Positions 11,235 through 59,220 of a stretch of 64,000 nt of DNA are shown here, in pieces. Both the position numbers and the translations under genes were made by a program. The DNA comes from SAR202 cluster bacterium (GTDB taxonomy: Bacteria; Chloroflexota; Dehalococcoidia; Lucifugimonadales; UBA826). The notes under the pieces were generated by a model that saw only the letters and a program-made list of their open reading frames with translations, was not told the origin of the DNA and did not search any database. The first letter of the stretch is position 1. Each line of letters begins with the position of its first letter. The DNA is taken from assembly GCA_022447825.1 (NCBI GenBank), contig JAKUTY010000006.1, positions 242-64,241 of the forward strand. The letters run 5' to 3'.

Positions 11235-11531
11235 ATGTCAGTTTATTCAATTACCAGTATTAATGTTAAAGATTGGGATGCATATAATGAATATATGAAA
11301 TTAGTTCCACCGATCATTAAAAAATTTGGTGGGAGATATATCGTCAGGGGTGGAGAAATTCACTCAGACACGACTACATGGAAGCCCAATAGGGTCGTAA
11401 TTTTGGAATTTCCTACTATAGAACAAATGAAAGAGTTTCGTGAATCAGAAGAATACAAACCAGTTGCAGCTATTCGTCAAGGAGCCTCAACTAGTGAAAG
11501 TTTTGTTGTAGAAGGATTTGATCAGAATTAA
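11235..11531 (+). CDS. DUF1330 domain protein
   Basis: 98 aa. The pattern Y.EY...VPPIIKKFGGRYIVRGG......W.P.RVVILEFP..E....F..S.EY is typical of DUF1330. Confidence 0.6.
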   Translation: MSVYSITSINVKDWDAYNEYMKLVPPIIKKFGGRYIVRGGEIHSDTTTWKPNRVVILEFPTIEQMKEFRESEEYKPVAAIRQGASTSESFVVEGFDQN

Positions 11532-12505
11532 CTCAGCAATTCTGGATTCAAACATGCTAGCATTTTCCCTTCTGTAAAGAAGTTGATTATATTATCTGCT
11601 GCCATAATTCCCATATTTCTTAAAGTAGCTGCACTTGCACTAGAAATATGGGGAGTAATTATCACATTTTCCATCGAAACTAACGGATCATCATGTGCAA
11701 TAGGTTCAGGATCCGTTACATCTAATGCAGCTCCTGAAATCTGATGGGTTTTTAATGCATTTGTCAAAGCTAGTTGGTCAATAGTTCCACCTCTAGAAGT
11801 ATTAATCAAAAAAGAATCGGATTTCATCAAATCTAGTTCACGTTTGCCAATAATTTTTTTTGTATCATCATTCAGAGGGACATGAACTGAAACATAATCA
11901 GCTTCTTGCAACATATCATCCAAACTTGATTTCCAAATTAATCCCAATTGATTTTCAAGATCAATCTTACGAGAACGAGAATGATAAATGATTTTCATAT
12001 TGAAACCGCTAGCTCTTTTCGCAACAGCACTGCCTATCATACCCACACCCAAAAGGCCTAAAGTTTTTCCATGTATATCATTTCCTAAATATGGAGTTTG
12101 ATCAAAAACTTTCCAGTTACCTTTTAAAACGTTGTAATGAGAATATGAAATTCTTCTCCCTAAAGTCAAAATAAGACCCATAGCAAAATCTGCACAAGAT
12201 TCATGTAAAATTCCGGGGGTATTTCCAATCAAAATACCCTTGGATGTAGCATATGACAAATCTATATTGTCATATCCAACAGCTCTAGTAGATACAATTT
12301 TTAAATTTTTGGCTGCATTAATCACATCGCTATCTATAGGATCATTAGCCTCAATCATAAAAGCATCACATTCAACAGATTTTTCTATAAGCACAGATTT
12401 GGGTGGAGGCGTAGTTTCATTCCAAACCTCAACTTGAAAAAAACTTTTAAGTTTATCAATCGCATCAGGAACTATTGGCCTAGTAACAAAAATTTTTTTA
12501 GTCAA
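11528..12505 (-). CDS. D-2-hydroxyacid dehydrogenase (glyoxylate/hydroxypyruvate reductase-like)
   Basis: GLLGVGMIGSAVAKRA NAD-binding motif, NTSRGG and ITPHISSAS motifs. TTG start with AGGTAG SD. Confidence 0.8.
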   Translation of the reverse strand: MTKKIFVTRPIVPDAIDKLKSFFQVEVWNETTPPPKSVLIEKSVECDAFMIEANDPIDSDVINAAKNLKIVSTRAVGYDNIDLSYATSKGILIGNTPGILHESCADFAMGLILTLGRRISYSHYNVLKGNWKVFDQTPYLGNDIHGKTLGLLGVGMIGSAVAKRASGFNMKIIYHSRSRKIDLENQLGLIWKSSLDDMLQEADYVSVHVPLNDDTKKIIGKRELDLMKSDSFLINTSRGGTIDQLALTNALKTHQISGAALDVTDPEPIAHDDPLVSMENVIITPHISSASAATLRNMGIMAADNIINFFTEGKMLACLNPELLS

Positions 12506-12511
12506 ATTAAT

Positions 12512-12997
12512 CTACCTACTCTTAAATTTTTCATAAACTTCTTCTTTTGTGGGAACACTATGCTTAATAAAAATATCTTTGCCATTTTCATCAAAAAACA
12601 CAAATGTTGGAATCATTTTAGTAGAAATCAAGTCAGTAATATGATTCCCTACAACGGAGTGAACATCAACTCTATATAACTTGTATTCATTTCTCAATTC
12701 AGACTCTAACCTATTCACGATAGGGTTCAACGTTAAACACCCCACTCAATAATCAGAATACATATAAAGAAGATAAGGTGAACCTGAAGAGCGAATATTT
12801 TCAAAACTTTGTACACTTGACATGTCTTGATTTGAATTTTTTTGAATTGACTGGAACAAAATCATGGCAATTAAACTTACGATAACAAAGACTAGTACAT
12901 ATTTTGCTGAAAAAAATCGTAATCCTATTAAAGAAAATATAATTACAAAAAAAACAGATGTGAAAATTAAAGAATACTGATTAATAAGGTTATACAA
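12512..12997 (-). CDS. membrane-anchored thioredoxin-fold protein, candidate selenoprotein (in-frame TGA at 12746..12748 read as Sec)
   Basis: Track ORFs 12746..12997 and 12512..12745 share one frame and are separated only by TGA. Joined, they read 2 TM helices, then ...SPYLLYMYSDY-[TGA]-VGCLTLNPIV...KMIPTFVFFDENGK... This gives a thioredoxin beta1 strand, a U-V-G-C motif where CxxC belongs, and the cis-Pro IPT motif. Confidence 0.55.
12708..12727 (-). promoter_or_regulatory. candidate bacterial SECIS-like hairpin downstream of the in-frame UGA
   Basis: Minus-strand RNA is AA-C-CCUAU-CGUGA-AUAGG-UU, a 5-bp stem (7 bp with one bulge) and a 5-nt loop containing GU. It starts about 21 nt 3' of the UGA. 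Confidence 0.35.
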
Positions 12998-22135: not shown

Positions 22136-22513
22136 ATGTCTGAACAATTTGATAAAGGATTTGAAATGAGGAAACAGGTTCTAGGAGATGATTATGTCAA
22201 TAAATCATTTGCCAATGCTTCTGAATTTGATAAACCTTTTCAAGAATTTGTAACCGAATCTGCGTGGGGAGAGGTATGGACTAGAAATGAATTAGACAAT
22301 AAAACAAAAAGTATAATTACAATGTCTGTATTACTTTCTCTAAGAGCAGAAAATGAAATAGCTTTGCATACAAGAGGTGCCGTAAATAATGGGGTTTCAG
22401 CTGAAGAATTAAGAGCAATAGCCATCCATGCCTCAGTATATGCAGGAGTCCCCTCTGCAATCTCTGGAATGAAAATCATCAAGCAAGTATTACAAGAAAT
22501 GGGGAAAATTTAA
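22136..22513 (+). CDS. carboxymuconolactone decarboxylase family protein (PcaC-like)
   Basis: 125 aa. ...WGEVWTRNELDNKTKSIITMSVLLSLRAENEIALHTRGAVNNGVSAEELRAIAIHASVYAGVP is the classic CMD-domain pattern. Confidence 0.8.
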   Translation: MSEQFDKGFEMRKQVLGDDYVNKSFANASEFDKPFQEFVTESAWGEVWTRNELDNKTKSIITMSVLLSLRAENEIALHTRGAVNNGVSAEELRAIAIHASVYAGVPSAISGMKIIKQVLQEMGKI

Positions 22514-28511: not shown

Positions 28512-28575
28512 GATTAGAAGAAGAATAAAAAATGTGATAGAGTCCCGCTACAGATAAAGAAAGCTAGAGGTGAAT

Positions 28576-28983
28576 ATGTCAAAACAAGGCGTGAACCCTG
28601 ACGAATTAAGTCAACCATTTTGGGATGCTGCTAACAATAATAAACTGATGATCCAAAACTGCATTACATGCGATAGGCTTCAACATCCTCCTGAATCAGA
28701 ATGTCGCGACTGTGAAAATGGCGAACTAGAGTGGAAGGAAATGAGCGGAAAAGGAAAAATATACAATTATGTAGTTGTATATGACTGCCCTGTAAGGATG
28801 CTACAAGAAGACCAACCTTTTAACGTTGCTGTAGTAATGTTAGACGAGGACCCAGGAATTCAAATGTACTCTCATTTACCTGGCGTTCCTGCAGACGAGG
28901 TTCCAGTCGGAGCAAATGTTGAAGTGATTTTTGAAAAATTACCTAATGGTCAAAACGTACCAGAATGGAAAATATCTAATTAA
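28576..28983 (+). CDS. DUF35 OB-fold / Zn-ribbon protein (thiolase partner)
   Basis: FWDAANNNKLMIQNCITCDRLQHPPESECRDCENGELEWKEMSGKGKIYNYVV shows a 4-Cys rubredoxin-like ribbon followed by an OB fold. ATG 28576 follows an AGAGGTGA SD. Confidence 0.75.
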   Translation: MSKQGVNPDELSQPFWDAANNNKLMIQNCITCDRLQHPPESECRDCENGELEWKEMSGKGKIYNYVVVYDCPVRMLQEDQPFNVAVVMLDEDPGIQMYSHLPGVPADEVPVGANVEVIFEKLPNGQNVPEWKISN

Positions 28984-29006
28984 GTAATTCTAAAAGGAGT
29001 GATTGT

Positions 29007-30329
29007 ATGGCTACAGAAAATGCACCACAATCAATGTATCGATCTGAAGAAGGTTTAGGAATTTGGGAACACAGAGGTAAAGTTGCAGCTGTTGGAATTG
29101 GACACTCTCCTACCGAAAGAAGGTGGGATGGCAGCAGAGATACTTCAGTGGGAGCCCTAAGTATTCTTGCTTTAAGAAAAGCAATGGAAGATGCTGGAGT
29201 GACACCTGACCAAGTAGATGGGTTAGTGATCACACCTGTGACTACCACTGGAGCTTTTTGGCCCGAGGAAGATCCTCTACCATGGGATGTCATTAAGTCA
29301 TATAACCAAACAGATGATCCGTTAGATGGAATTGCTAAATTAAGCGCAGAATGGCTATTAAAAAATATGCCAGAACTTACTAACGTCAAATACACTCAAT
29401 ACGGTCCAACATGTATGTCTAACGCATTAAATGTTGCCTCTCAAGCAGTAGGAGATGGCCTTACCAATGTTTGTCTAGTATTGAAAGCGTGGCATAACTT
29501 ACCGGGTAGATACTACCAAAGCGGACCAAACGCGCACGATGCAATACAAGGCACATCAGCCATAAGAACACTATGGGGAGCACCTGCATGCTCAGGTACA
29601 GCCTTACAGTTTGCTGAATACTGCAGAAAATACGGTAAAACTCACGACATGATGGCTCCATTTATGATCAATTCAAGAAGAAATGGACTAATGATGCCTG
29701 AGGGATACTGGTACCAACATAGACCTGAAGAATTAACAGCAGAAGATTATGAATATGCTAGATGGATTGCTAAACCTGCTAATCTTTTTGACAATGATAT
29801 TCCTATCATGATGGCAGGAGCATACTTGTTTGCTACATCAGAAAGAGCAAAGGATATGAAGCAAAAACCTGTGTATATTTTAAATCACGCATCAAGTGAG
29901 GCTATCCCTAGAAGCCTTACTCCTTCATTAGATGAAGTTGAAGCAGAAACTGCTAGTACAGCCAGAAAAATTTACGAAGGTGCTGGCATTACAGCTGCTG
30001 ACTTATCTTTTGAGAACATGTACGATGGGTTCCCTCAATTTCATCAATTCCATATCGAAGGTCTTGGATATAGAGGAATTAAATTTGGTGAAGCTTTAGA
30101 TTTTTACCAAACTGATATTAGCATTGAAGGACCAAACCCAGTTTCTCCTAGCGGAGGAAACATTGGTGCAGGTAGAAGCAGAGTTTGGCTACACACTGAT
30201 AGTATCCAACAAATTCAAGGTAGAGCTGGTGCTAGAGCAGTAACTGGAGTAAAACCTGAAATTGCTGTGTCTGGAGGCCCAATGCCTCTTGGAGGAAATT
30301 ATACTGTTTGGAGTGCGACACCTGACTAA
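29007..30329 (+). CDS. thiolase-fold protein (SCP-x/non-specific lipid-transfer type), non-canonical active site
   Basis: 440 aa with SD AAAGGAG. N-terminal GKVAAVGIGHSP, a Cys in GPTCMSNALNVA at the nucleophile position, but YDGF where SCP2-type thiolases have HDCF, and no GHP motif. Confidence 0.65.
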   Translation: MATENAPQSMYRSEEGLGIWEHRGKVAAVGIGHSPTERRWDGSRDTSVGALSILALRKAMEDAGVTPDQVDGLVITPVTTTGAFWPEEDPLPWDVIKSYNQTDDPLDGIAKLSAEWLLKNMPELTNVKYTQYGPTCMSNALNVASQAVGDGLTNVCLVLKAWHNLPGRYYQSGPNAHDAIQGTSAIRTLWGAPACSGTALQFAEYCRKYGKTHDMMAPFMINSRRNGLMMPEGYWYQHRPEELTAEDYEYARWIAKPANLFDNDIPIMMAGAYLFATSERAKDMKQKPVYILNHASSEAIPRSLTPSLDEVEAETASTARKIYEGAGITAADLSFENMYDGFPQFHQFHIEGLGYRGIKFGEALDFYQTDISIEGPNPVSPSGGNIGAGRSRVWLHTDSIQQIQGRAGARAVTGVKPEIAVSGGPMPLGGNYTVWSATPD

Positions 30330-33390: not shown

Positions 33391-36372
33391 TTAGTTCCCT
33401 GAACCTGAAAGAGATGTTGCAATATCCAATACTGAAGACAAATTACTTACATCGACAGCAGGTGCACTATCAAGTTGATCAACATTCTCAATAGCACCAT
33501 TGATTACACTCAATAGTCCGTATTCAGCCTGTCGATCCAATTCTTGAACTCTAGCTTGAATTTCTGTCAATTGTTGTCTCAATTCTTCGTGTTCAGCGTA
33601 TAAATCTTCTATTTCATCCCACTTCACAGAAATTTGATTTTGAATATCATCTGCCACAGATTGAAGAGGAAGAATATGATCAGCAATTCTGGCTTCCTTT
33701 TCTAGTTCTAATTGTTCGATTTGAGCATTGATTTGATCTTCAAAAGCAGTTTCAGCTTCTTGTCTTTTAGCATCAAGAGCTCTAAATTCATCATTTATCT
33801 CTTGATCTAAAGCTCTAAACCTAGCTTCTTCTTGGTCACTATAATTATCCCAAGCATCGTCCATGGCATCATGAATCGCTTTTTCTTGCTCATGTCTCCA
33901 ATCTTCAAACTCACTCCATAAATTATCGTTGAAAGAATCCCTCTCCTGATCTCTCTGTTCTTTCATTTGATTCAAACCAATACGTTGTTTATCCAACATT
34001 TGGTATTCTCTATCAAGAGCTTTAAATTGTTTATGAATAGGCTTTCTTAACTTCTCAACTTCTCTCCATTCATCATGAATAGTATCTAATTTCTGTTGAA
34101 CTTGTCGTAATTCTTTTTCTATAACCTCTCTACCTTTTTTGTCCTCTTTATGAGAATTTTCTCTTTCCTCATTTAGTTGTTTGATAGATAGTTCTACTGC
34201 TTGAATTTGATTTTGCAACGTTTCTTCTATAGCAACGTTAGCATTACTAGCTCCATAGTATTTTTCATCAATTTTAGCTATTTCATTAATACGAGTATTC
34301 TCAGCATCTAATTTCTGTTGTTCTAATTGTTGCTCTAATGCATTCACATCAACAGAAGATTCATTAGAACCCATTAGTTTGACTTCCTGAACATCACCTT
34401 CCCAGAAATTTTCCCAGGGAGTTGTGCCTAGAGTATAAGAATGAGCGAGCCATTCTCCAGCTACAGGTTGAACAGGTTGCAAAACCCAAAGCCCCTCTTT
34501 ATGTGAATAAATGTAACAAAATTCATATTGTGAACCCTGTTCGCCACAATCTTTTTTAACCCACATTGGGTGTCCGTTAAATTCACCTTGTTCTACATAA
34601 TCCCCTGCATAGTGTGTAGCACCACCCTCAAAAATAGCTCTTATCCATTTTCCATTTGTAGATGAATTTTTCTGATGATTAATTAATTGAATATTATGTT
34701 CCAATTCATTATTCAACTGATTAATTATGTTCTGGTACTCTTCTAACCTTGAGTATGCAGCAGTAATTTCTGGACCAGATACATTTGCAGCACCTCCCGT
34801 AGTAGCAGCCGATTGCTGTAATTCTTGTAATCTACCCTCTAATGGCTGCAGATCTTGAGTAAGCATATTTATTTGATCTACTATAGCGAGGTGTTGTGGA
34901 TTATCAGTAGTAACTTCTGAACCAGCCACAAATTGTGGTACCTGAGTCAATTGAGCTTCTAAATCAGATATTCCAAGAGTAATCTCGGCAATCTGTGGAT
35001 TATCTACCATAATTATACTGACTCCTGATGATCCAAAACCTGTCATTTCTATTTGTTGAGGCATATTAGCTAAGATAGCTTTTTTATTTTCAATCTCTGC
35101 TAGCAAACTAGTATATTGATTGTTCGGCTGGGGATCTGAAGTATATGTAGCTGGAATTGTTGTTAAGCTTTGATTAAGCAAATCTATTTCGGCAGATCGA
35201 TTATCAATTTCGGCAATTAATTGGCTTATTTCCACATTTATATTCGCATTAGCTTGTGTATCAGCCTGTGCATCACTTTCTAATTGCATAACAAAATTGT
35301 GCTCATTTTGTACCATATTTTCATAATAAGCTATTTGTTCTGATGTAGAAGCTTTAAGTGCTTCTATTTGCGCCAAATTTGATGAGGAATCATCAGCTGC
35401 TGAATTTGTTTCATAAGCCGTGTCTCTCTGGGATTCGATTTGTTGAATTGTAGCGTGGTAATCATTCCAAACTGCTTCAACTTCCTGGTCATACATATCC
35501 CAATCTAATTGCTGTGTGCTAGAAGTATTTGTAGTAGATGTTCCAGCAGCAGACGACCATACCGTTTCTAATTGATGATACAAATCATCTAATTCTTTTT
35601 GTTTTTCTTCAAATTTATCATCGTAATAATCCATTGATTTTGCATCAGAATTATTTCTCCAATCTTGCTGATCTAATTGATCATGTAATTCTCTTTCTTT
35701 ATCATGCAAAAGTTCTCTTCTGTCATCAATTTCCATCATCTGATCATCAAACACCATATTTTGTTCATCTAATGAAATTCTAATTTGATCTAATTTAAAA
35801 TAAGCTTCCTTAATAGCATTCTTCTGTAATCTATATTCGCTATTTTTATCCCAATCATCCATAGCAATATGATTTTGTTTTTCTCTTTGATGACGTTCAT
35901 CGTCAAAAGCTTCCCATATCTCGTGATTTTGTTGATCTAATTGATCTCTAATTAGTTCTAATTCTTCATCAAGTGCATCATACCTAGCATCTATAGAGTT
36001 CTCAAAAGCCTCGAATTCTTCTTCAACCATCTGTTCAAATTTTTCTCTGGCTTCATCCTCGTCCAAGAAAAGATTTTGATGTTCAGCTTCCATATCTCTC
36101 TCGAATTCATTCCCTATAATCTCAGCTTGCTGATTAATAATTTCCAATTCTTCTTCTAATGATTCGATTTCTTGTTCAATTGGTTTAATTCTTGAATCTA
36201 CCTCAGCAATTTGCTGAACCAATGGATCTACTTCATTGGTCTGTATCTCTAAAATTTGAGCTCGCATATCCAAAACAGATTGGGCAGCCTCTGCATCAAC
36301 AATTCCACAAGCAACCATAGAGAAACTAATAGATAAAATTCCAATAATCCTCAAGCCTATCTTATTTAACAT
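33391..36372 (-). CDS. giant acidic coiled-coil lipoprotein, paralog A (unknown family)
   Basis: Signal peptide plus lipobox (SMVAC), then about 950 aa of D/E/Q-rich heptad-like sequence. An aromatic-rich globular insert of about 95 aa is present. The ATG at 36372 follows a GGAG SD. Confidence 0.75.
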   Translation of the reverse strand: MLNKIGLRIIGILSISFSMVACGIVDAEAAQSVLDMRAQILEIQTNEVDPLVQQIAEVDSRIKPIEQEIESLEEELEIINQQAEIIGNEFERDMEAEHQNLFLDEDEAREKFEQMVEEEFEAFENSIDARYDALDEELELIRDQLDQQNHEIWEAFDDERHQREKQNHIAMDDWDKNSEYRLQKNAIKEAYFKLDQIRISLDEQNMVFDDQMMEIDDRRELLHDKERELHDQLDQQDWRNNSDAKSMDYYDDKFEEKQKELDDLYHQLETVWSSAAGTSTTNTSSTQQLDWDMYDQEVEAVWNDYHATIQQIESQRDTAYETNSAADDSSSNLAQIEALKASTSEQIAYYENMVQNEHNFVMQLESDAQADTQANANINVEISQLIAEIDNRSAEIDLLNQSLTTIPATYTSDPQPNNQYTSLLAEIENKKAILANMPQQIEMTGFGSSGVSIIMVDNPQIAEITLGISDLEAQLTQVPQFVAGSEVTTDNPQHLAIVDQINMLTQDLQPLEGRLQELQQSAATTGGAANVSGPEITAAYSRLEEYQNIINQLNNELEHNIQLINHQKNSSTNGKWIRAIFEGGATHYAGDYVEQGEFNGHPMWVKKDCGEQGSQYEFCYIYSHKEGLWVLQPVQPVAGEWLAHSYTLGTTPWENFWEGDVQEVKLMGSNESSVDVNALEQQLEQQKLDAENTRINEIAKIDEKYYGASNANVAIEETLQNQIQAVELSIKQLNEERENSHKEDKKGREVIEKELRQVQQKLDTIHDEWREVEKLRKPIHKQFKALDREYQMLDKQRIGLNQMKEQRDQERDSFNDNLWSEFEDWRHEQEKAIHDAMDDAWDNYSDQEEARFRALDQEINDEFRALDAKRQEAETAFEDQINAQIEQLELEKEARIADHILPLQSVADDIQNQISVKWDEIEDLYAEHEELRQQLTEIQARVQELDRQAEYGLLSVINGAIENVDQLDSAPAVDVSNLSSVLDIATSLSGSGN

Positions 36373-36399
36373 CAACTGCTCCTATCCTTTTTCTATTTT

Positions 36400-38865
36400 C
36401 TAATCGTTATTAGTAGGTAAATCCAATAATGAATCAAATCCTATAGCTCGACCAGTGCCTCCAGCATCTAATTGTTCTACATTGGAAATAGCATCATTTA
36501 TTACGCTAAGAAGTCCAAATTCAGCCTGTCTATCTAACTGTTGAACTCTTGCTTGTAGAGATTCAAGTTGGGATTTGTAATTTTCTTGAGTCTCATATAA
36601 AGAATCTAATTCTGCAAATTTTGCATCAATTTGAGACTCTAGATCTTTTGCTTGAGCTTCTAATGGAGCAAGAACTTCTTCAAAAATTCTGTCTTGTTCA
36701 TTTTCTATTTCAATTCTTGCAGTTTTTTCCAGGTCCTTAAATGCTTTTTCACTATCTTTTCTCTTTTGATCCAGAGCATCTCTCTCATCTTCCATATTTC
36801 GTTCTAAATTTTTCCTGAGAGCTTTGGCTTCATCCTCAAAGTTATCCCAATTCTGCTTTGTCAAATCTTCAATTTCATCCTGTCGAATTTTGATCCATTT
36901 ATCAAATTCACCCCATGTTTGATCACGAATTGCATCATCATCAGCACCTTCAGATTGCTGCCTCTGCATTTCAAGCATCATACTTTCTTTGTCTAATGCC
37001 ATTTGCTGTTTTCTAATAGGTCGTTCTTGTCGCTCTAATTCTTTTTGTTGATCCCTGAGGGGGTCAATTTGAGCTTCTAAATTTCGAATCCTAGTTTGCA
37101 TTTCTTTAGCACGTTGTTCACGGTTCTTATGAAATTTATGCATTTTATCTTCCATTGCTTCAATTTCATCTTCCAGTGCTTTAATTTGTGATTTCAATCC
37201 TTCAGCTGCAGGAGGCTCATTTGAATTATTTGTTCCATAATATGAATTATCTATAGCAGCAATAGCATTTTCTCTCTTTGATAGTGCATTAGATTCAAGT
37301 ATAGCTAACTCATTTTCTAACGCTGTCAAATCAACAGTACCTTGATTCGAAAAATCAGTAGACTGTGCAGCAGCTTCATCTTTTTTACTTTGAAGTTCTG
37401 TATTTAGTTCATTTATCACTGCATTCAATTCGTCTCGCTTAGAAATAAGGGCAGTTAATTCTGGATTAGAATCTGATGAATTTTCATTTAGTTGATTCAA
37501 CTCATTATTCTTTGTTGAAATTTGAGAATCTTTAAAATTAATATCCTGTTCTATACCGACAATTGTATTCTCTTTATCAGCAATTTCTGCGATTAATGAA
37601 GCATACTCAGGATTATCAATCAAATCATTTCTTCCGTCTCCGTCCGAATCTACAGTACCTTCAATTTGTTGGGGAGTAGAAACTAATGCATCTTGTGCAG
37701 CAGTTTTAGCATTTCTCAATTCAGTTAAGTTAATACGTGCATTTTCTATTTCAATATTCAAAGCTTCAATATCAGAAATTAATGCACTTTTTGCACCAGC
37801 AGTAGAGTTACCTGATGATGACAAAGCATCTATCTCAGCCTGTATTTGAATAACTTGATTATTGTAGTCTGAAATTTTTGATACATATTCTTGTTCTATT
37901 ACCGAAATATCTTTCACAGATGCGGCAGCATCAGCATCATTTTGAGCTGAATATGCTTGAGATCTACGATTCTGAATAGAATCGATTTCGGCATGATAAG
38001 CATTCCATGCATTATCTATTTCAGAATCATAATTACTCCAATCTTTAGCAGGAGCGAAACTTGTACTTGATTGATTAAAAGAATCCCAAGCTAACTGTAA
38101 TTGATCGTGCAAACTATCTAAAAGTTTCCTTCTGTTCCTAATGTCTTCATCCCTCCCCTCAAAACTCCTATCGTCCCAAATATCACTATTTTGCCTATGG
38201 AAATCCTCTATTTGATCAAACACAGGCTGTAGTTGCTCGTCGAGCATCATTCGCTGTTCTTGAATTTCCATGCTTTGGAAATTTAATTCCATCCTGACAG
38301 CTTCAAGCTTCTTTCTTGCTATCCTGTTAGGATCCTGATCTCTTAATTCATTTTCTAAATTTCTAGTCTCATCTTCCTTATCTCTCCTCTCATCATCCCA
38401 AGCATCCCATATCATTTCATTTTGATCGTCAATTAATTCTCGTCTGTCATCAATCTCATCATCCAGACGATCCCATTGATCTTTATGGTCATCATCCATT
38501 TGTCTCCATTGATTGTCTAATTCCTCATAAAATGCTTCTCTAGCTTCGTCCTGGTTCATAAACGCCAAATCGAATTTTTCACGCATTTCATCTTCGAAAC
38601 CTCTCCCCACCTCTTCACCTTGCCTATACAAATCTTCACGTTGATCTTCTAGGGCTTCAATTTCAGCTTCGATAGGATCAATTTGGTCTTGCAAAGCTTT
38701 CATCTGTTCCATCAGAGGATCAACCTCTGTTGTTTGAATCTCTAAAATTTGTGCTCGAGTGTCAACAACACTCTGAGCAGCCTCAGAATCAACAATTCCA
38801 CAGGCCATAAAAGCACCAGAAATCATTAGCGAACCAACAATCTTCAAAATTGCGTTCTTCAACAT
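36400..38865 (-). CDS. giant acidic coiled-coil lipoprotein, paralog B (unknown family)
   Basis: Signal peptide plus lipobox (AFMAC). The N-terminal 40 aa and C-terminal 30 aa are nearly identical in pattern to paralog A. The ATG at 38865 follows an AGGAGA SD; the track TTG start at 38889 is less likely. Confidence 0.75.
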   Translation of the reverse strand: MLKNAILKIVGSLMISGAFMACGIVDSEAAQSVVDTRAQILEIQTTEVDPLMEQMKALQDQIDPIEAEIEALEDQREDLYRQGEEVGRGFEDEMREKFDLAFMNQDEAREAFYEELDNQWRQMDDDHKDQWDRLDDEIDDRRELIDDQNEMIWDAWDDERRDKEDETRNLENELRDQDPNRIARKKLEAVRMELNFQSMEIQEQRMMLDEQLQPVFDQIEDFHRQNSDIWDDRSFEGRDEDIRNRRKLLDSLHDQLQLAWDSFNQSSTSFAPAKDWSNYDSEIDNAWNAYHAEIDSIQNRRSQAYSAQNDADAAASVKDISVIEQEYVSKISDYNNQVIQIQAEIDALSSSGNSTAGAKSALISDIEALNIEIENARINLTELRNAKTAAQDALVSTPQQIEGTVDSDGDGRNDLIDNPEYASLIAEIADKENTIVGIEQDINFKDSQISTKNNELNQLNENSSDSNPELTALISKRDELNAVINELNTELQSKKDEAAAQSTDFSNQGTVDLTALENELAILESNALSKRENAIAAIDNSYYGTNNSNEPPAAEGLKSQIKALEDEIEAMEDKMHKFHKNREQRAKEMQTRIRNLEAQIDPLRDQQKELERQERPIRKQQMALDKESMMLEMQRQQSEGADDDAIRDQTWGEFDKWIKIRQDEIEDLTKQNWDNFEDEAKALRKNLERNMEDERDALDQKRKDSEKAFKDLEKTARIEIENEQDRIFEEVLAPLEAQAKDLESQIDAKFAELDSLYETQENYKSQLESLQARVQQLDRQAEFGLLSVINDAISNVEQLDAGGTGRAIGFDSLLDLPTNND

Positions 38866-39091
38866 CGAAAATCTCCTGTAAGAAATCAATATATTAAATA
38901 ATCATTTATCGTGACAATTCTACTCTCAAATGCGTCATGATTCTAGATACTACACAATTATTCCAGTAATAAGTTTTTTTGTGGTGAGTATGAATACGCA
39001 AAACCAACACGTAAAACCACTTGTATTAAGATTTTGTTGATAATAAACAACCTTTATTTTATAGTTTTTTAATCATTAACTGGATAACAAT

Positions 39092-40983: not shown

Positions 40984-42378
40984 ATGATTAAAACTTTAAT
41001 GTACAACTTGTGGTCCAGAAAAAATGGGTACAAAGATTTGTTATGGATAGCATATCCACTCATTCTCAGTACAAGTGCTTTCACCATTCAAGTTTTCGTA
41101 GATAGAATGTTTTTGTCTTGGTACTCTCCTCAGGCTTTAGCTGCAGCACTTCCTACTGGGGTTTTAAGCTTCAACATCGTAAGTTTTTTCATGGGAACTT
41201 CTCAATATGTAGGCACTTTTGTCGCTCAATACGTCGGAGCAAAATCTCCTGAAAAAATAGGTAATATTCTTTGGCAGGGTATATATTTTTCAGCTATAGG
41301 GGGATCGATCTTAGTAACTTTATCCTTTTTTTCAGAAACAATTTTCAATTTCATTGGTCATGATCCTTTAGTCAGAGAAGAACAATTTAAGTATTGGAGA
41401 TACTTAACAATAGCTGGAATTTTTCAAATTCAACTCGGAGCTTTAAGTTCATTTTTTAGCGGTCGAAATAAAACCTATCCGATCATGTGGGCAAGCTTTA
41501 CTGCTACATTTGTAAACATTTGTTTAAATTATTGTTTGATATTTGGCAATTTCGGATTCCCTGAAATGGGAATTTCAGGAGCGGGATTATCTACTATAGT
41601 AGCAACAATAACAAATGTAACAATTCTGTCTTATTTAATATTTAAACCAAAAAACAATACTCAATATCAAGTAATTTCAGGATTTCATTTCAATCGCAAA
41701 GTTTTTTATCGATTGATAAAATTTGGAATGCCAAATGGCTTCACATTCTTTTTAAACATGACAGTTTTCAGCATATTTGTGTTACTAATAGGCAGAATCG
41801 GAATCATAGAATTAGCAGCGGCCAACATAGCTATGAATGTCGCGATGCTAGCATTTATGCCCATGGTTGGACTTGGAATATCTGTAATGGTATCTGTTGG
41901 ACAGGCTATTGGAGCAAAAACTCCTGATTTAGCTAAAAGAGCGACATATTCAGGACTTCAAATTTCATGGATTTATTTAAGTTTTTTATCCATATTTTAT
42001 ATATTTTTACCACAAATTTTGATCTTCCCTTTTGAATCAAATGCTTCATCAGAAAATTTCAATGAAATTGCTGATTTAACTAAAAATATTCTTAAACTAG
42101 TTGCACTATGGTCATTTTTTGACGCTCTAGGCATCATGATTTCTTCAGGTTTAAAAGGGGCTGGTGATACGAAGTTTATTATGTTGTCTGTAGGAGTAAT
42201 CGGAACTTTTGTTGCAGCAATACCAGTTTATATAGTGCTAGAAATATTCTCTATGGGTATATACGCTGCATTCATAAATGGGACAATATTTCTTGCAGTG
42301 TTAGGTATCACATACTTAATAAGATTCAGAAATGGAAAATGGCAAAATATGAGAGTGATAGAAACAGAAAGTAATTAA
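40984..42378 (+). CDS. MATE family efflux transporter
   Basis: 464 aa, 12 TM. N-terminal [26 protein letters not shown] is typical of NorM/MATE. Confidence 0.8.
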
Positions 42379-42776
42379 TCTTCTCTCTTAAGATTTAAAG
42401 AGGCTGAATTAATACAATACCTCAACCCAGTTGGGGCAGGACCATCAGGAAAAACATGACCTAAATGTGCTCCACAATTTTTACACATTACCTCAGTTCT
42501 AATCATTCCATATGAAGTGTCAGATTCTTCAACTATATTTTTTAAATCAAGTGCGTCAAAAAAACTAGGCCATCCACACATAGAATCGAATTTAGTTTCA
42601 GAAGAAAACAACTCAATTTCACAACATATACATTTATAAACACCAGAATCAGTTACATTCCAATATTCTCCAGTAAAAGCACGCTCAGTTGCCTTATTTC
42701 TTGTAACTTCATACTGAATTGGAGTAAGAAGATTTTTGTACTCTTCATCTGATAATGGTTGTTGATTCTGTGACAT
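42375..42776 (-). CDS. msrB: peptide-methionine (R)-S-oxide reductase
   Basis: [13 protein letters not shown]...CGWPSF...[16 protein letters not shown]...RYCINS shows two CxxC Zn motifs and the catalytic RYCINS Cys. Confidence 0.92.
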
Positions 42777-57635: not shown

Positions 57636-58736
57636 ATGAGCTTAAGAGGCAGAGCAGCAATAGTAGGTATAGGAGAAGTACCTACAAAACGTGTTCATGA
57701 AGGCAGAACTATGGTTGGTCTTTGTGCTGAAGCTGCTGAATTAGCAATTAAAGATTCCGGATTACGAAAAGAAGATATTAATGGTTTAGTTACTGATGGA
57801 GTAACACCCCCTCCGGGGCTTGCAGAATACATTGGAATTCAACCCAATTTTGCCACTGGCGTCACTATGCAAGGTGCAAGTGGAGCAACAGCCACTATGG
57901 TAGCTACTGCCGCAATTAATGGAGGTATTTGCCATACTGCATTAGTTGTAATGGGAAATGCAAGAACAGATAGGCCAGACCCAGGAAGAGGTTTATCTGG
58001 AGCAAGTATCAGGTCAGAATGGGAAGAACCCTATGGCATGGCACCAGGAGCTAATACTGGATATGGTCTAATTTATCAAAGACATATGCACGAATATGGA
58101 ACTACAGAAGAACAGTTAGCTAAAATGGCTGCAGACCAAAGATTTAATGCTCAAAAAAATGAAAATGCAGTATTTCACGGACAACCAGCTAGTAAAGAAG
58201 ATATCTTAAACTCTAGATATATCAATGAACCCATCAAATTACTAGAATCAGTCATGCCTTGCGATGGAGCAGCAGCTTTAATAATTACTACTCCAGAAAG
58301 AGCAAAAACCCTTAAAAATAAACCTGCTTACATTTTGGGAACCGGACTTAAACAAGGCGAAGCCAATATTTGGCAGAGAGATAGAATAACTGAAACTCCA
58401 GCAGTTGAATCTGTAAGAAGGGCTTTAGAAATGTCTGGGTACTCTCCAGGGGATATTGAATTTGCTGAATTTTATGATTGTTACACTATTTTAGCTGCCG
58501 TATGCATTGAAGACGCTGGTTTGGTAGAAAAGGGTGAAATTGGCCCCTTTTACGAGTCGACAGACACTACTTACAAAGGTACATTTCCAATTAACACTGA
58601 CGGAGGCCAGCTTTCTGGCGGACAGCCTGGTTTAGCAGGCGGATTCCGACATGTAATTGAAGGAGCTAGGCAAGTAATGGGTAAAGCGGGTCCAAGGCAG
58701 GTACCCAATAGTGACCTCTGCCTCGTAAATGGTTGA
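57636..58736 (+). CDS. thiolase-fold protein (SCP-x type) with non-canonical active site; ORF ends at a TGA inside the conserved C-terminal Gly-rich motif (in-frame continuation to 58793)
   Basis: GRAAIVGIGEVP N-terminus, QGASG where the nucleophile CxSG is expected, YDCY (HDCF-like), and NTDGGQLSGGQPG (GQP instead of GHP). The ORF ends ...CLVNG-TGA-GGTASEMCSIVLGSEDTL-TAA. Confidence 0.7.
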   Translation: MSLRGRAAIVGIGEVPTKRVHEGRTMVGLCAEAAELAIKDSGLRKEDINGLVTDGVTPPPGLAEYIGIQPNFATGVTMQGASGATATMVATAAINGGICHTALVVMGNARTDRPDPGRGLSGASIRSEWEEPYGMAPGANTGYGLIYQRHMHEYGTTEEQLAKMAADQRFNAQKNENAVFHGQPASKEDILNSRYINEPIKLLESVMPCDGAAALIITTPERAKTLKNKPAYILGTGLKQGEANIWQRDRITETPAVESVRRALEMSGYSPGDIEFAEFYDCYTILAAVCIEDAGLVEKGEIGPFYESTDTTYKGTFPINTDGGQLSGGQPGLAGGFRHVIEGARQVMGKAGPRQVPNSDLCLVNG

Positions 58737-58746
58737 GGGGGCACAG

Positions 58747-58784
58747 CGAGCGAAATGTGCTCGATAGTTCTCGGGTCCGAGGAC
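58747..58784 (+). other. two GC-rich hairpins immediately 3' of the in-frame TGA (SECIS-like or intercistronic structure)
   Basis: CGAGC-GAAAUGU-GCUCG (58747..58763) starts 10 nt after the UGA. GUUCUCG-GGUC-CGAGGAC follows at 58767..58784. Local GC content and G/C-ending codons are atypical for this window. Confidence 0.4.
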
Positions 58785-58803
58785 ACACTTTAAGGAAAAA
58801 ATA

Positions 58804-59220
58804 ATGGCATCTGCTTACGATAAACCACTACCAGTTCCATCTAATCCAACTCTAACTAAACCTTTCTGGGAAGCTACCCGAAAAGAAGAGTTATTACTGC
58901 CTAGATGTAATACCTGTTCTGCTCTATTCTTTTACCCTAGGGAGGTTTGTCCGAAATGTCCATCAATGGATCTAGGATGGCAAAAAGCTTCCGGACTAGG
59001 AAAAGTTTATTCTTACACTAAAGTTAAACAGGCTGCACATCCGTCTTTTCAATCCGCTGACGGACACATTTATGCAATTATTCAATTAAACGAAGGTATG
59101 AAAATTCCTTCAAACATAGTTGGAATTGATGCGGATGATGTAAAAATAGATATGGATGTCGTAGCAGTATTTGAGAAAGTCACAGATGAAGTTACCTTAG
59201 TGAAATTCAAACCTATTTAA
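58804..59220 (+). CDS. DUF35 OB-fold / Zn-ribbon protein (thiolase partner)
   Basis: FWEATRKEELLLPRCNTCSALFFYPREVCPKCPSMDLGWQKASGLGKVYSYT shows a 4-Cys ribbon followed by an OB fold. Confidence 0.75.
   Translation: MASAYDKPLPVPSNPTLTKPFWEATRKEELLLPRCNTCSALFFYPREVCPKCPSMDLGWQKASGLGKVYSYTKVKQAAHPSFQSADGHIYAIIQLNEGMKIPSNIVGIDADDVKIDMDVVAVFEKVTDEVTLVKFKPI

Follow-up and report, generated by a model that had tools for sequence, protein, structure and literature searches.

We analysed a 64,000-nucleotide stretch of a SAR202 cluster bacterium contig (GenBank JAKUTY010000006.1, positions 242 to 64,241; hereafter the window), focusing on a minus-strand reading frame at 12997..12512 that is interrupted by one in-frame TGA. 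In our assessment, with a probability of roughly 0.87, 12997..12512 is a single SAR202 gene for an oxidoreductase of the thioredoxin fold, 161 residues long, that is held in the membrane by two transmembrane helices and carries selenocysteine (Sec, U) in the active site U84-V-G-C87. A previous sequence-only reading had proposed that the UGA is decoded as Sec, and this is supported by the occurrence of the UGA in 90 species, by homologs with Cys at the same position and by a downstream hairpin that appears specific to the Sec form.

Direct translation gives one frame of 161 codons whose sole interruption is the TGA at 12748..12746, in agreement with the prior description of two minus-strand open reading frames (ORFs) in the same frame, separated by TGA, that join into a 161-codon protein. 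The stop is flanked by ...GSPYLLYMYSDY-TGA-VGCLTLNPIVNRLE..., and read-through yields the junction peptide ...YMYSDY-U-VGCLTLNPIVNR. The N-terminus, MYNLINQYS, agrees with those of full-length homologs (e.g. P0012 and P0018). Among pairs of same-frame ORFs that are split by TGA and have at least 45 codons on each side, every pair in the window except 12512..12997 is an antisense shadow of another gene.

When U was replaced by Cys, the joined protein matched Pfam Thioredoxin (PF00085) over residues 65-140, a region that spans the stop, with 33.1 bits against a cut-off of 23.5. A PDB profile search (E = 5e-15) returned classical thioredoxins first and aligned U to the first Cys of WCGPC. AlphaFold2, supplied with the family alignment, produced a model with a predicted local distance difference test (pLDDT) score of 93.5 and a predicted template modelling score of 0.84, in which helices 9-28 and 31-52 precede a thioredoxin fold. 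Residue 84 lies at the N-terminus of helix 85-101, and Pro130, which is invariant in a 46-sequence alignment, is positioned just before strand 131-135. Foldseek also placed classical thioredoxins at the top (target-normalised template modelling score of ∼0.75), with the DsbD gamma domain at 0.59. These results confirm several features that had been noticed from the letters alone, namely a thioredoxin fold that is collinear across the UGA, two N-terminal transmembrane helices and a cis-Pro motif followed by a beta strand. They equally bear out the argument that neither half makes sense by itself, as the downstream half lacks strand beta-1 and the first redox residue while the joined chain is modelled as one domain.

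No Cys occurs in either transmembrane helix of the window protein. Across 55 full-length homologs, Lys and Arg residues average 2.4 in the loop between the two helices, 0.4 in the N-terminus and 1.25 in the 15 residues past the second helix. Because the positive-inside rule would place the loop between the helices in the cytoplasm, the thioredoxin domain is predicted to face outward, and we have moderate confidence that both the N-terminus and the thioredoxin domain are on the outer face of the membrane.

To catalogue homologs, an exhaustive HMMER search was clustered at 50% identity to give 157 representatives, 122 of which were aligned; a word-indexed protein search with the joined protein had recovered one cluster only. 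The Cys-containing homologs that were expected at the UGA column are abundant, as the 122 aligned representatives carry Cys in 76 cases, 'W' in 19, Ser in 5 and Tyr in 1, while 21 have no residue there. Those 21 comprise 20 short products that start just past the column and one upstream half (P0022). The first homolog (P0001, 97% identical) has 'W' in its protein sequence and TGA in its contig DNA. Likewise, TGA is found in each of the three contigs (L012-L014) that encode a 'W' representative with 31% identity to the query, a protein that has genuine Trp elsewhere. In these two checked cases, therefore, 'W' at the Sec column is a gene-caller artefact, since the DNA reads TGA and was translated with code 4. 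The idea that 'W' marks a true Trp homolog, which would imply a TGG-to-TGA nonsense mutation, was rejected on the same grounds. Public collections thus hold translations of Sec genes with Trp at the active site (P0001, P0012 and P0018; loci L001 and L012-L014), code 4 having been chosen for short, low-GC contigs, and such mistranslations can mislead homology checks into a 'Trp homolog'.

At the DNA level, the index of a public contig collection lists the downstream half-protein in 174 blocks, from which 23 contigs of many samples were read. Synteny with the window is complete in all ten loci that were viewed with 20 kb of surrounding sequence, and each has the same split. A degenerate DNA pattern, P-x5-Y-S-[DNEK]-[YF]-TGA-x-[GA]-C-x4-P, was then scanned on one genome per GTDB species and produced 92 matches, compared with about 4 by chance as estimated from the information content of the pattern. 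Ninety of the 92 belong to the family: they share the in-frame TGA, the protein is conserved on both sides of it, and their GC content ranges from 31% to 73%. The second active-site Cys is retained in 90/90 of these genomic Sec forms, and both halves are conserved at the protein level down to about 25-30% identity. Carriers are nearly all Chloroflexota (SAR202, other Dehalococcoidia including UBA1141, Anaerolineae, Roseiflexaceae, other Chloroflexia, Ardenticatenia and Thermoflexus), together with a few bins labelled Myxococcota, Acidobacteriota, KSB1 or Cytophagia. A check of the support for the TGA, as opposed to TGT, TGC or an indel, was positive both in contigs from many samples and across 90 GTDB species. 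One Sec-form locus, L042, comes from a metagenome-assembled genome (MAG) named 'uncultured Klebsiella sp.' (CAYXXK010000014.1); its gene is close to those of Roseiflexaceae-type and Chloroflexota MAGs (L018 and L086), so the Klebsiella label looks wrong and may reflect mis-binning or contamination.

The 66 nt that begin with the TGA align without gaps in 91 sequences, and a hairpin occupies columns 23-30 and 34-41 of this alignment. In the window, CCUAU (12724..12720) pairs with AUAGG (12714..12710) to form a 5 bp core around the apical loop CGUGA (12719..12715), an outer A-U pair (12726/12708) lies beyond a C.U mismatch, and exactly 21 nt separate the A of the UGA from the core. The same hairpin, with GU in its loop and about 21 nt past the UGA, had been picked out in the sequence-only reading, and it coincides with a family-wide hairpin that is supported by covariation. 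The structure was named by hand and its pairing was then counted on the 91-sequence alignment. Pairing was observed in 83.6% of cells, compared with 75.1 ± 0.7% after column shuffling (none of 500 shuffles was as high) and 24-45% after sliding of the 3' partner. A total of 101 cells are changed on both sides, against 37.6 ± 10.1 in shuffles, and four hairpin pairs feature compensatory changes. Pair 27-37 occurs as CG (44), UA (33) and GC (3), pair 28-36 as GC (41) and AU (37), and pair 24-40 as six pair types, while G31 and U32 of the loop are invariant in 91/91 sequences.

The hairpin lies inside the coding sequence and would thereby dictate the protein motif P-x-V-[DN]-[GR]. In pair 27-37 the third base of the Pro codon, a wobble position, is joined to the base that opens a GGG, AGG or CGG codon, so that the choice between Gly and Arg is set by RNA pairing, and this covariation goes beyond what coding constraint alone explains. 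Val is found at position +10 in 90/90 Sec forms and in 33/76 Cys forms. At +12, 86/90 Sec forms have Gly, Arg or Trp, whereas the 76 Cys forms mostly have Arg (17), Ala, Gln, Glu, Ser, Lys or Asp, with Gly and Trp outside the seven commonest residues. A DNA control for the Cys forms was assembled from metagenomes (9 loci, 6 usable), and pairing averaged 6.7 of 8 positions in 91 Sec forms against 4.3 of 8 in these 6 Cys forms (Mann-Whitney p = 4e-5, a small sample). Collectively, these comparisons indicate a hairpin imprint that is specific to the Sec forms. A subgroup labelled KSB1 or Cytophagia (L058, L065, L068, L069, L084 and L089) features CCCAU-CGUGAA-AUGGG and a UGG (Trp) codon at +12, and so appears to keep the hairpin one register over; if so, the fixed-register count understates pairing, and the subgroup would be a further case of an amino acid that is set by RNA pairing.

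Published limits for bacterial Sec insertion sequence (SECIS) elements are a loop of 3-9 nt with G in one of its first two positions, a spacing of 16-37 nt, a stem of 4-16 bp and a minimum free energy of -7.5 kcal/mol or lower (PMC13188914). The window hairpin is within these limits for loop length (5 nt, CGUGA), loop G, spacing (26 nt) and stem (5 bp), though not for energy. More generally, the family shares with the bSECISearch consensus model a hairpin 3' of the UGA, a loop of 3-7 nt with an early G then U, a spacing of 26 nt (within 16-37) and an upper stem of 5-8 bp (PMC13188914). By the standard bacterial mechanism, a ribosome that reaches the UGA at 12748..12746 would find SelB, with Sec-tRNA(Sec), recruited by the hairpin at 12726..12708, and Sec would be inserted in place of termination. 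By analogy with thioredoxin chemistry, Sec84 may then attack a substrate disulfide, sulfenic acid or oxidised cysteine to form a selenenylsulfide that Cys87 would resolve, which suggests thiol/selenol-disulfide exchange as the activity of the protein.

Several observations weigh against this interpretation. Energetically, the window copy of the hairpin differs from the consensus model, at -3.3 kcal/mol against the limit of -7.5, which 53/91 family members reach. The fold of the 59 nt after the UGA is no better than that of shuffled sequences (z = -0.27), RNAalifold (also run via ViennaRNA) returned no consensus structure for the 91-sequence alignment, and the column-shuffle control ignores the relatedness of the sequences. 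An Infernal search with the Rfam SECIS families, a check proposed with the sequence-only reading, had no match in the window at gathering thresholds or at E ≤ 10. As the hairpin of the window is weak in isolation and its local fold is at chance level, the case for a SECIS element is a comparative one. Neither selA, selB nor selD (tblastn with E. coli proteins) nor a tRNA-Sec gene (ARAGORN) was found in the window plus 0.9 Mb of related loci, which is too little sequence to establish absence. In terms of function, Pfam analysis detected no CcdA or DsbD gene in the window, nor DsbB or sel genes, and the 90 Sec-form loci have no conserved gene neighbour that would point to a redox partner. The outward topology is derived from charge counts only.

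Some of these observations would suit a read-through of the UGA without Sec, in which a near-cognate tRNA (Trp or Cys) or another form of recoding would produce WxxC or CxxC and the hairpin would merely slow termination. The failure to find Sec machinery in the sequence searched, the weak window hairpin and the missing Rfam match all point in this direction. The column is nonetheless dominated by Cys, the 'W' residues were TGA in both cases checked, and the hairpin matches bacterial SECIS elements in geometry and in the G-U of its loop. BSepDB credits UBA1141, which carries the Sec form (L033), with 49 selenoprotein genes and places it among the species judged to hold the Sec pathway (PMC13326102). 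It would also be pointless for 90 species to keep a UGA merely for Cys when TGY is available, and we consider non-Sec read-through improbable.

We regard it as very improbable that the locus comprises two genes in their own right, one for a membrane peptide of 83 residues and one for a truncated thioredoxin-like protein of 77 residues that starts at the GTG at 12745. These are exactly the products that gene callers output and that appear in public annotation, yet the frame is kept in 90/90 species, each Cys form is one unsplit protein with about 160 residues, and the downstream product would be missing both beta-1 and the first redox residue of a chain that AlphaFold2 folds as one domain. In addition, many homologs have no start codon after the UGA, as the next residue is L, I, M or V. 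Reading the TGA as the mark of a pseudogene, or as an error of sequencing or assembly, would require one base change in a Cys (TGT or TGC) or Trp (TGG) codon, but this was ruled out, with a negligible probability, because the TGA recurs in independent samples among the contigs of the 174 indexed blocks, in the 31%-identical homolog and in 90 species-level genomes, with both halves still conserved. Conservation of the TGA and its flanking protein across so many species and samples makes the error, pseudogene and two-gene explanations untenable.

The 'W' in public translations (P0001, P0012 and P0018) might also suggest that UGA is a sense codon genome-wide (table 4 or 25). This was ruled out, again with a negligible probability, by stop usage and by the absence of other TGA-riddled genes in the window, and the two 'W' products that were checked do not re-translate under table 11. 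Under that table the window has a coding fraction of 0.91, and its 59 long ORFs stop at TAA (42), TGA (9) and TAG (8). With 9 of 59 ORFs ending in TGA and a normal coding density, UGA is an ordinary stop in this SAR202 genome, which uses the standard genetic code.

Sec decoding in this genome is further supported by a second conserved TGA in the same window that also appears to be recoded, within a thiolase-like gene (57636..58793). Its ORF, 57636..58736, ends with TGA in the context V-N-G-TGA-G-G, a putative active-site loop, and the frame runs for 18 more codons (GGTASEMCSIVLGSEDTL) to give the junction peptide ...DLCLVNG-U-GGTASEMCSIVLGSEDTL; a DUF35 (ChsH2-type) partner gene starts at 58804, just past the TAA. 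The 18-codon extension corresponds to a C-terminal segment that is needed in solved homologs, which have Thr or Ile at the TGA column. Eight lineages with 55-98% protein identity all have the TGA followed by the conserved extension, and the two hairpins after it (Table 1) pair in 89% of cells compared with 27-58% when slid, although covariation was not significant with 8 sequences. Among the best 120 homologs, 83 end in ...VNG and 26 end in ...EFYD, one residue before the Cys of a YDCY motif that we take to be the equivalent of the 'HDCF' motif. Eight of the remaining 11 are readable at the TGA column, with Asn in 6, Ser in 1 and Cys in 1.

A 78%-identical homolog, L128:1201-2370, has two in-frame TGAs, one in V-N-G-U-G-G and one at the Cys position of YDCY, where the thiolase-like protein of the window has Cys283 (...EFYDCYTIL...). 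No clear SECIS-like hairpin was found after the first of these TGAs (YD-U-Y). Judged from these reading frames, L128-type homologs would be double-Sec proteins of the thiolase fold, and if the two UGA positions lie near each other in the folded protein, a Sec/Cys or Sec/Sec pair with a redox or catalytic role could arise in an enzyme that acts on carbon-carbon bonds. The thiolase-like gene in the window is likely to encode a second selenoprotein and is probably the more novel item of the window; thiolase-type proteins were not found by a term search in a 2026 review of prokaryotic selenoproteins. A broader proposal, that low-GC SAR202 recodes UGA in about two genes per 64 kb and that the thiolase-like gene and its DUF35 partner represent an undescribed selenoprotein family, is put forward tentatively, at somewhat less than even odds. 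A second DUF35 (ChsH2-type) and thiolase-like pair, at 28570..30329 on the plus strand, has the opposite gene order and no internal TGA.

Table 1. Features of the thioredoxin-like and thiolase-like loci in the window
Feature	Coordinates	Strand	Details and basis
Complete gene, membrane-anchored thioredoxin-like protein	12512..12997	minus	TTG 12997..12995, UGA codon 84, TAG 12514..12512; frame and Pfam
N-terminal half ORF	12746..12997	minus	83 aa, TTG start
C-terminal half ORF	12512..12745	minus	77 aa, GTG start
Predicted transmembrane helix 1, residues 9-28	12914..12973	minus	AlphaFold2 helix and hydropathy
Predicted transmembrane helix 2, residues 31-52	12842..12907	minus	AlphaFold2 helix; preceded by a short Lys/Arg-rich loop
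Thioredoxin-fold domain, residues 62-159	12521..12814	minus	Pfam, PDB profile, AlphaFold2, Foldseek
In-frame UGA, read as selenocysteine residue 84	12746..12748	minus	Conserved UGA and Cys in homologs
Active-site motif U-V-G-C (TGA GTG GGG TGT), counterpart of thioredoxin C-G-P-C	12737..12748	minus	PDB profile alignment onto WCGPC
SECIS-like hairpin	12708..12726	minus	Columns 23-41 of the 91-sequence alignment
Invariant cis-Pro-type Pro130	12610..12608	minus	46-sequence alignment
D-2-hydroxyacid dehydrogenase gene, co-directional neighbour	11528..12505	minus	Pfam E = 1e-59
Thiolase-like (SCP2/Ltp-type) gene with internal TGA	57636..58793	plus	TGA 58734..58736, TAA 58791..58793
Hairpin 1 after the thiolase-like TGA	58745..58765	plus	Conserved pairing, 8 sequences
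Hairpin 2 after the thiolase-like TGA, loop GGUC	58767..58784	plus	Conserved pairing, 8 sequences

Among bacterial selenoproteins, those with a thioredoxin fold and a UxxC motif are the most common. Thioredoxin-like UxxC selenoproteins have been catalogued from the Sargasso Sea (PMC1088965), from the GOS data as 'Trx-like 1' and 'Trx-like 3' (PMC2398784) and in a review as 'Thioredoxin PF00085 UxxC' (PMC13188914). The present family shares with them the thioredoxin fold, Sec in place of the N-terminal attacking Cys, a marine habitat, comparable numbers of Cys homologs and a SECIS-like hairpin within the coding region. It differs in its two-helix anchor and its focus on Chloroflexota, neither of which is mentioned in the passages found from these catalogues. 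GOS 'Trx-like 3' has a table entry that records a weak TxlA-type (cd02950) match, UxxC, and 212 Sec versus 183 Cys sequences (PMC2398784). The TxlA-type match parallels the weak slr1796 NCBIfam match of our family, and judged by that table entry 'Trx-like 3' could be the same family.

NCBIfam gave sub-threshold matches only (TrxA, the DsbD gamma region and TsoB for the window protein; slr1796 and TlpA for homologs), and none of its selenoprotein-specific models recognises the window protein or the family. The score with the canonical TrxA equivalog (TIGR01068) was 31.9 bits against a cut-off of 96.8, and the protein is membrane-anchored and lacks WCGPC. TlpA, ResA, CcmG/DsbE and HCF164/TxlA (slr1796) resemble the family in having a membrane-tethered thioredoxin domain, here predicted to face outward, and weak matches were obtained to the TlpA, DsbE and slr1796 models. 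Homologs score 13-24 bits, far below the cut-offs of 123-230, and the window protein has no such match. Those proteins have one N-terminal helix and CxxC, as opposed to two helices and UxxC, and no cytochrome-maturation or CcdA gene neighbours the present family.

The DsbD gamma domain and the DsbD-like part of TsoB (NF045694) also place a thioredoxin domain directly after transmembrane helices, and the weak matches map to this gamma region, the only part that aligns, in keeping with the Foldseek score for DsbD-gamma. The window protein scored 17.8 bits with DsbD (cut-off 330) and 18.2 with TsoB (cut-off 805), family scores are about 18-24 bits, and classical thioredoxins match better. The eight-helix core of DsbD, with its membrane cysteines, and its alpha domain have no counterpart in this protein. 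The commonest motif in the family, [C/U]-[VIL]-A-C, resembles CVAC, which we take to be the motif of DsbD-gamma. Overall, we rate the family as a new or, failing that, hitherto undescribed representative of a selenoprotein class that is already common in bacteria. A literature search found no paper on selenium, selenocysteine or selenoproteins in SAR202.

The D-2-hydroxyacid dehydrogenase gene begins at 12505, 6 nt after the TAG stop of the thioredoxin-like gene. The sequence-only reading had placed the two genes in one operon; the spacing and adjacency are correct, whereas 'operon' reflects adjacency only and the neighbour is found in 11/90 Sec-form loci. Based on that adjacency, the two genes may be co-transcribed. 

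The window has a GC content of about 35%, and the nearest relatives of the half-proteins carry the NCBI names 'SAR202 cluster bacterium' or 'Chloroflexota bacterium'. It encodes CoA-transferase III, HpcH/HpaI aldolases, GMC oxidoreductases, a luciferase-like monooxygenase, enolase-superfamily enzymes and the thiolase-like/DUF35 pairs, families that are expanded in SAR202. Two adjoining large minus-strand ORFs, 33391..36375 (994 aa) and 36400..38889 (829 aa), have no significant Pfam domain, and the latter has weak coiled-coil-type matches only. Uninterrupted ORFs encode a CMD/AhpD-like protein (22136..22513, plus strand), a glutaredoxin (the small ORF after it), which was identified via the syntenic locus L002, and MsrB (SelR domain; 42375..42776, minus strand). 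Members of these three families are selenoproteins in other marine bacteria.

The gene is present in at least 90 species-level genomes and in contigs of 174 blocks of the public collection, and the inspected public gene calls either split it into two 'hypothetical proteins' or mistranslate it with Trp at the active site. Because no NCBIfam model catches the family, selenoprotein counts for Chloroflexota are probably underestimates. The Sec and Cys forms provide a natural experiment on residues that would be forced by a SECIS element (Val at +10, Gly or Arg at +12), and predictors of SECIS elements and selenoproteins could profit from training on this family when applied to low-GC genomes, whose hairpins are weak. 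In the dark ocean, SAR202 ranks among the more abundant bacterial clades. Our findings point to selenium dependence in this oligotrophic marine lineage and would add to it an apparently outward-facing, membrane-tethered Sec oxidoreductase.

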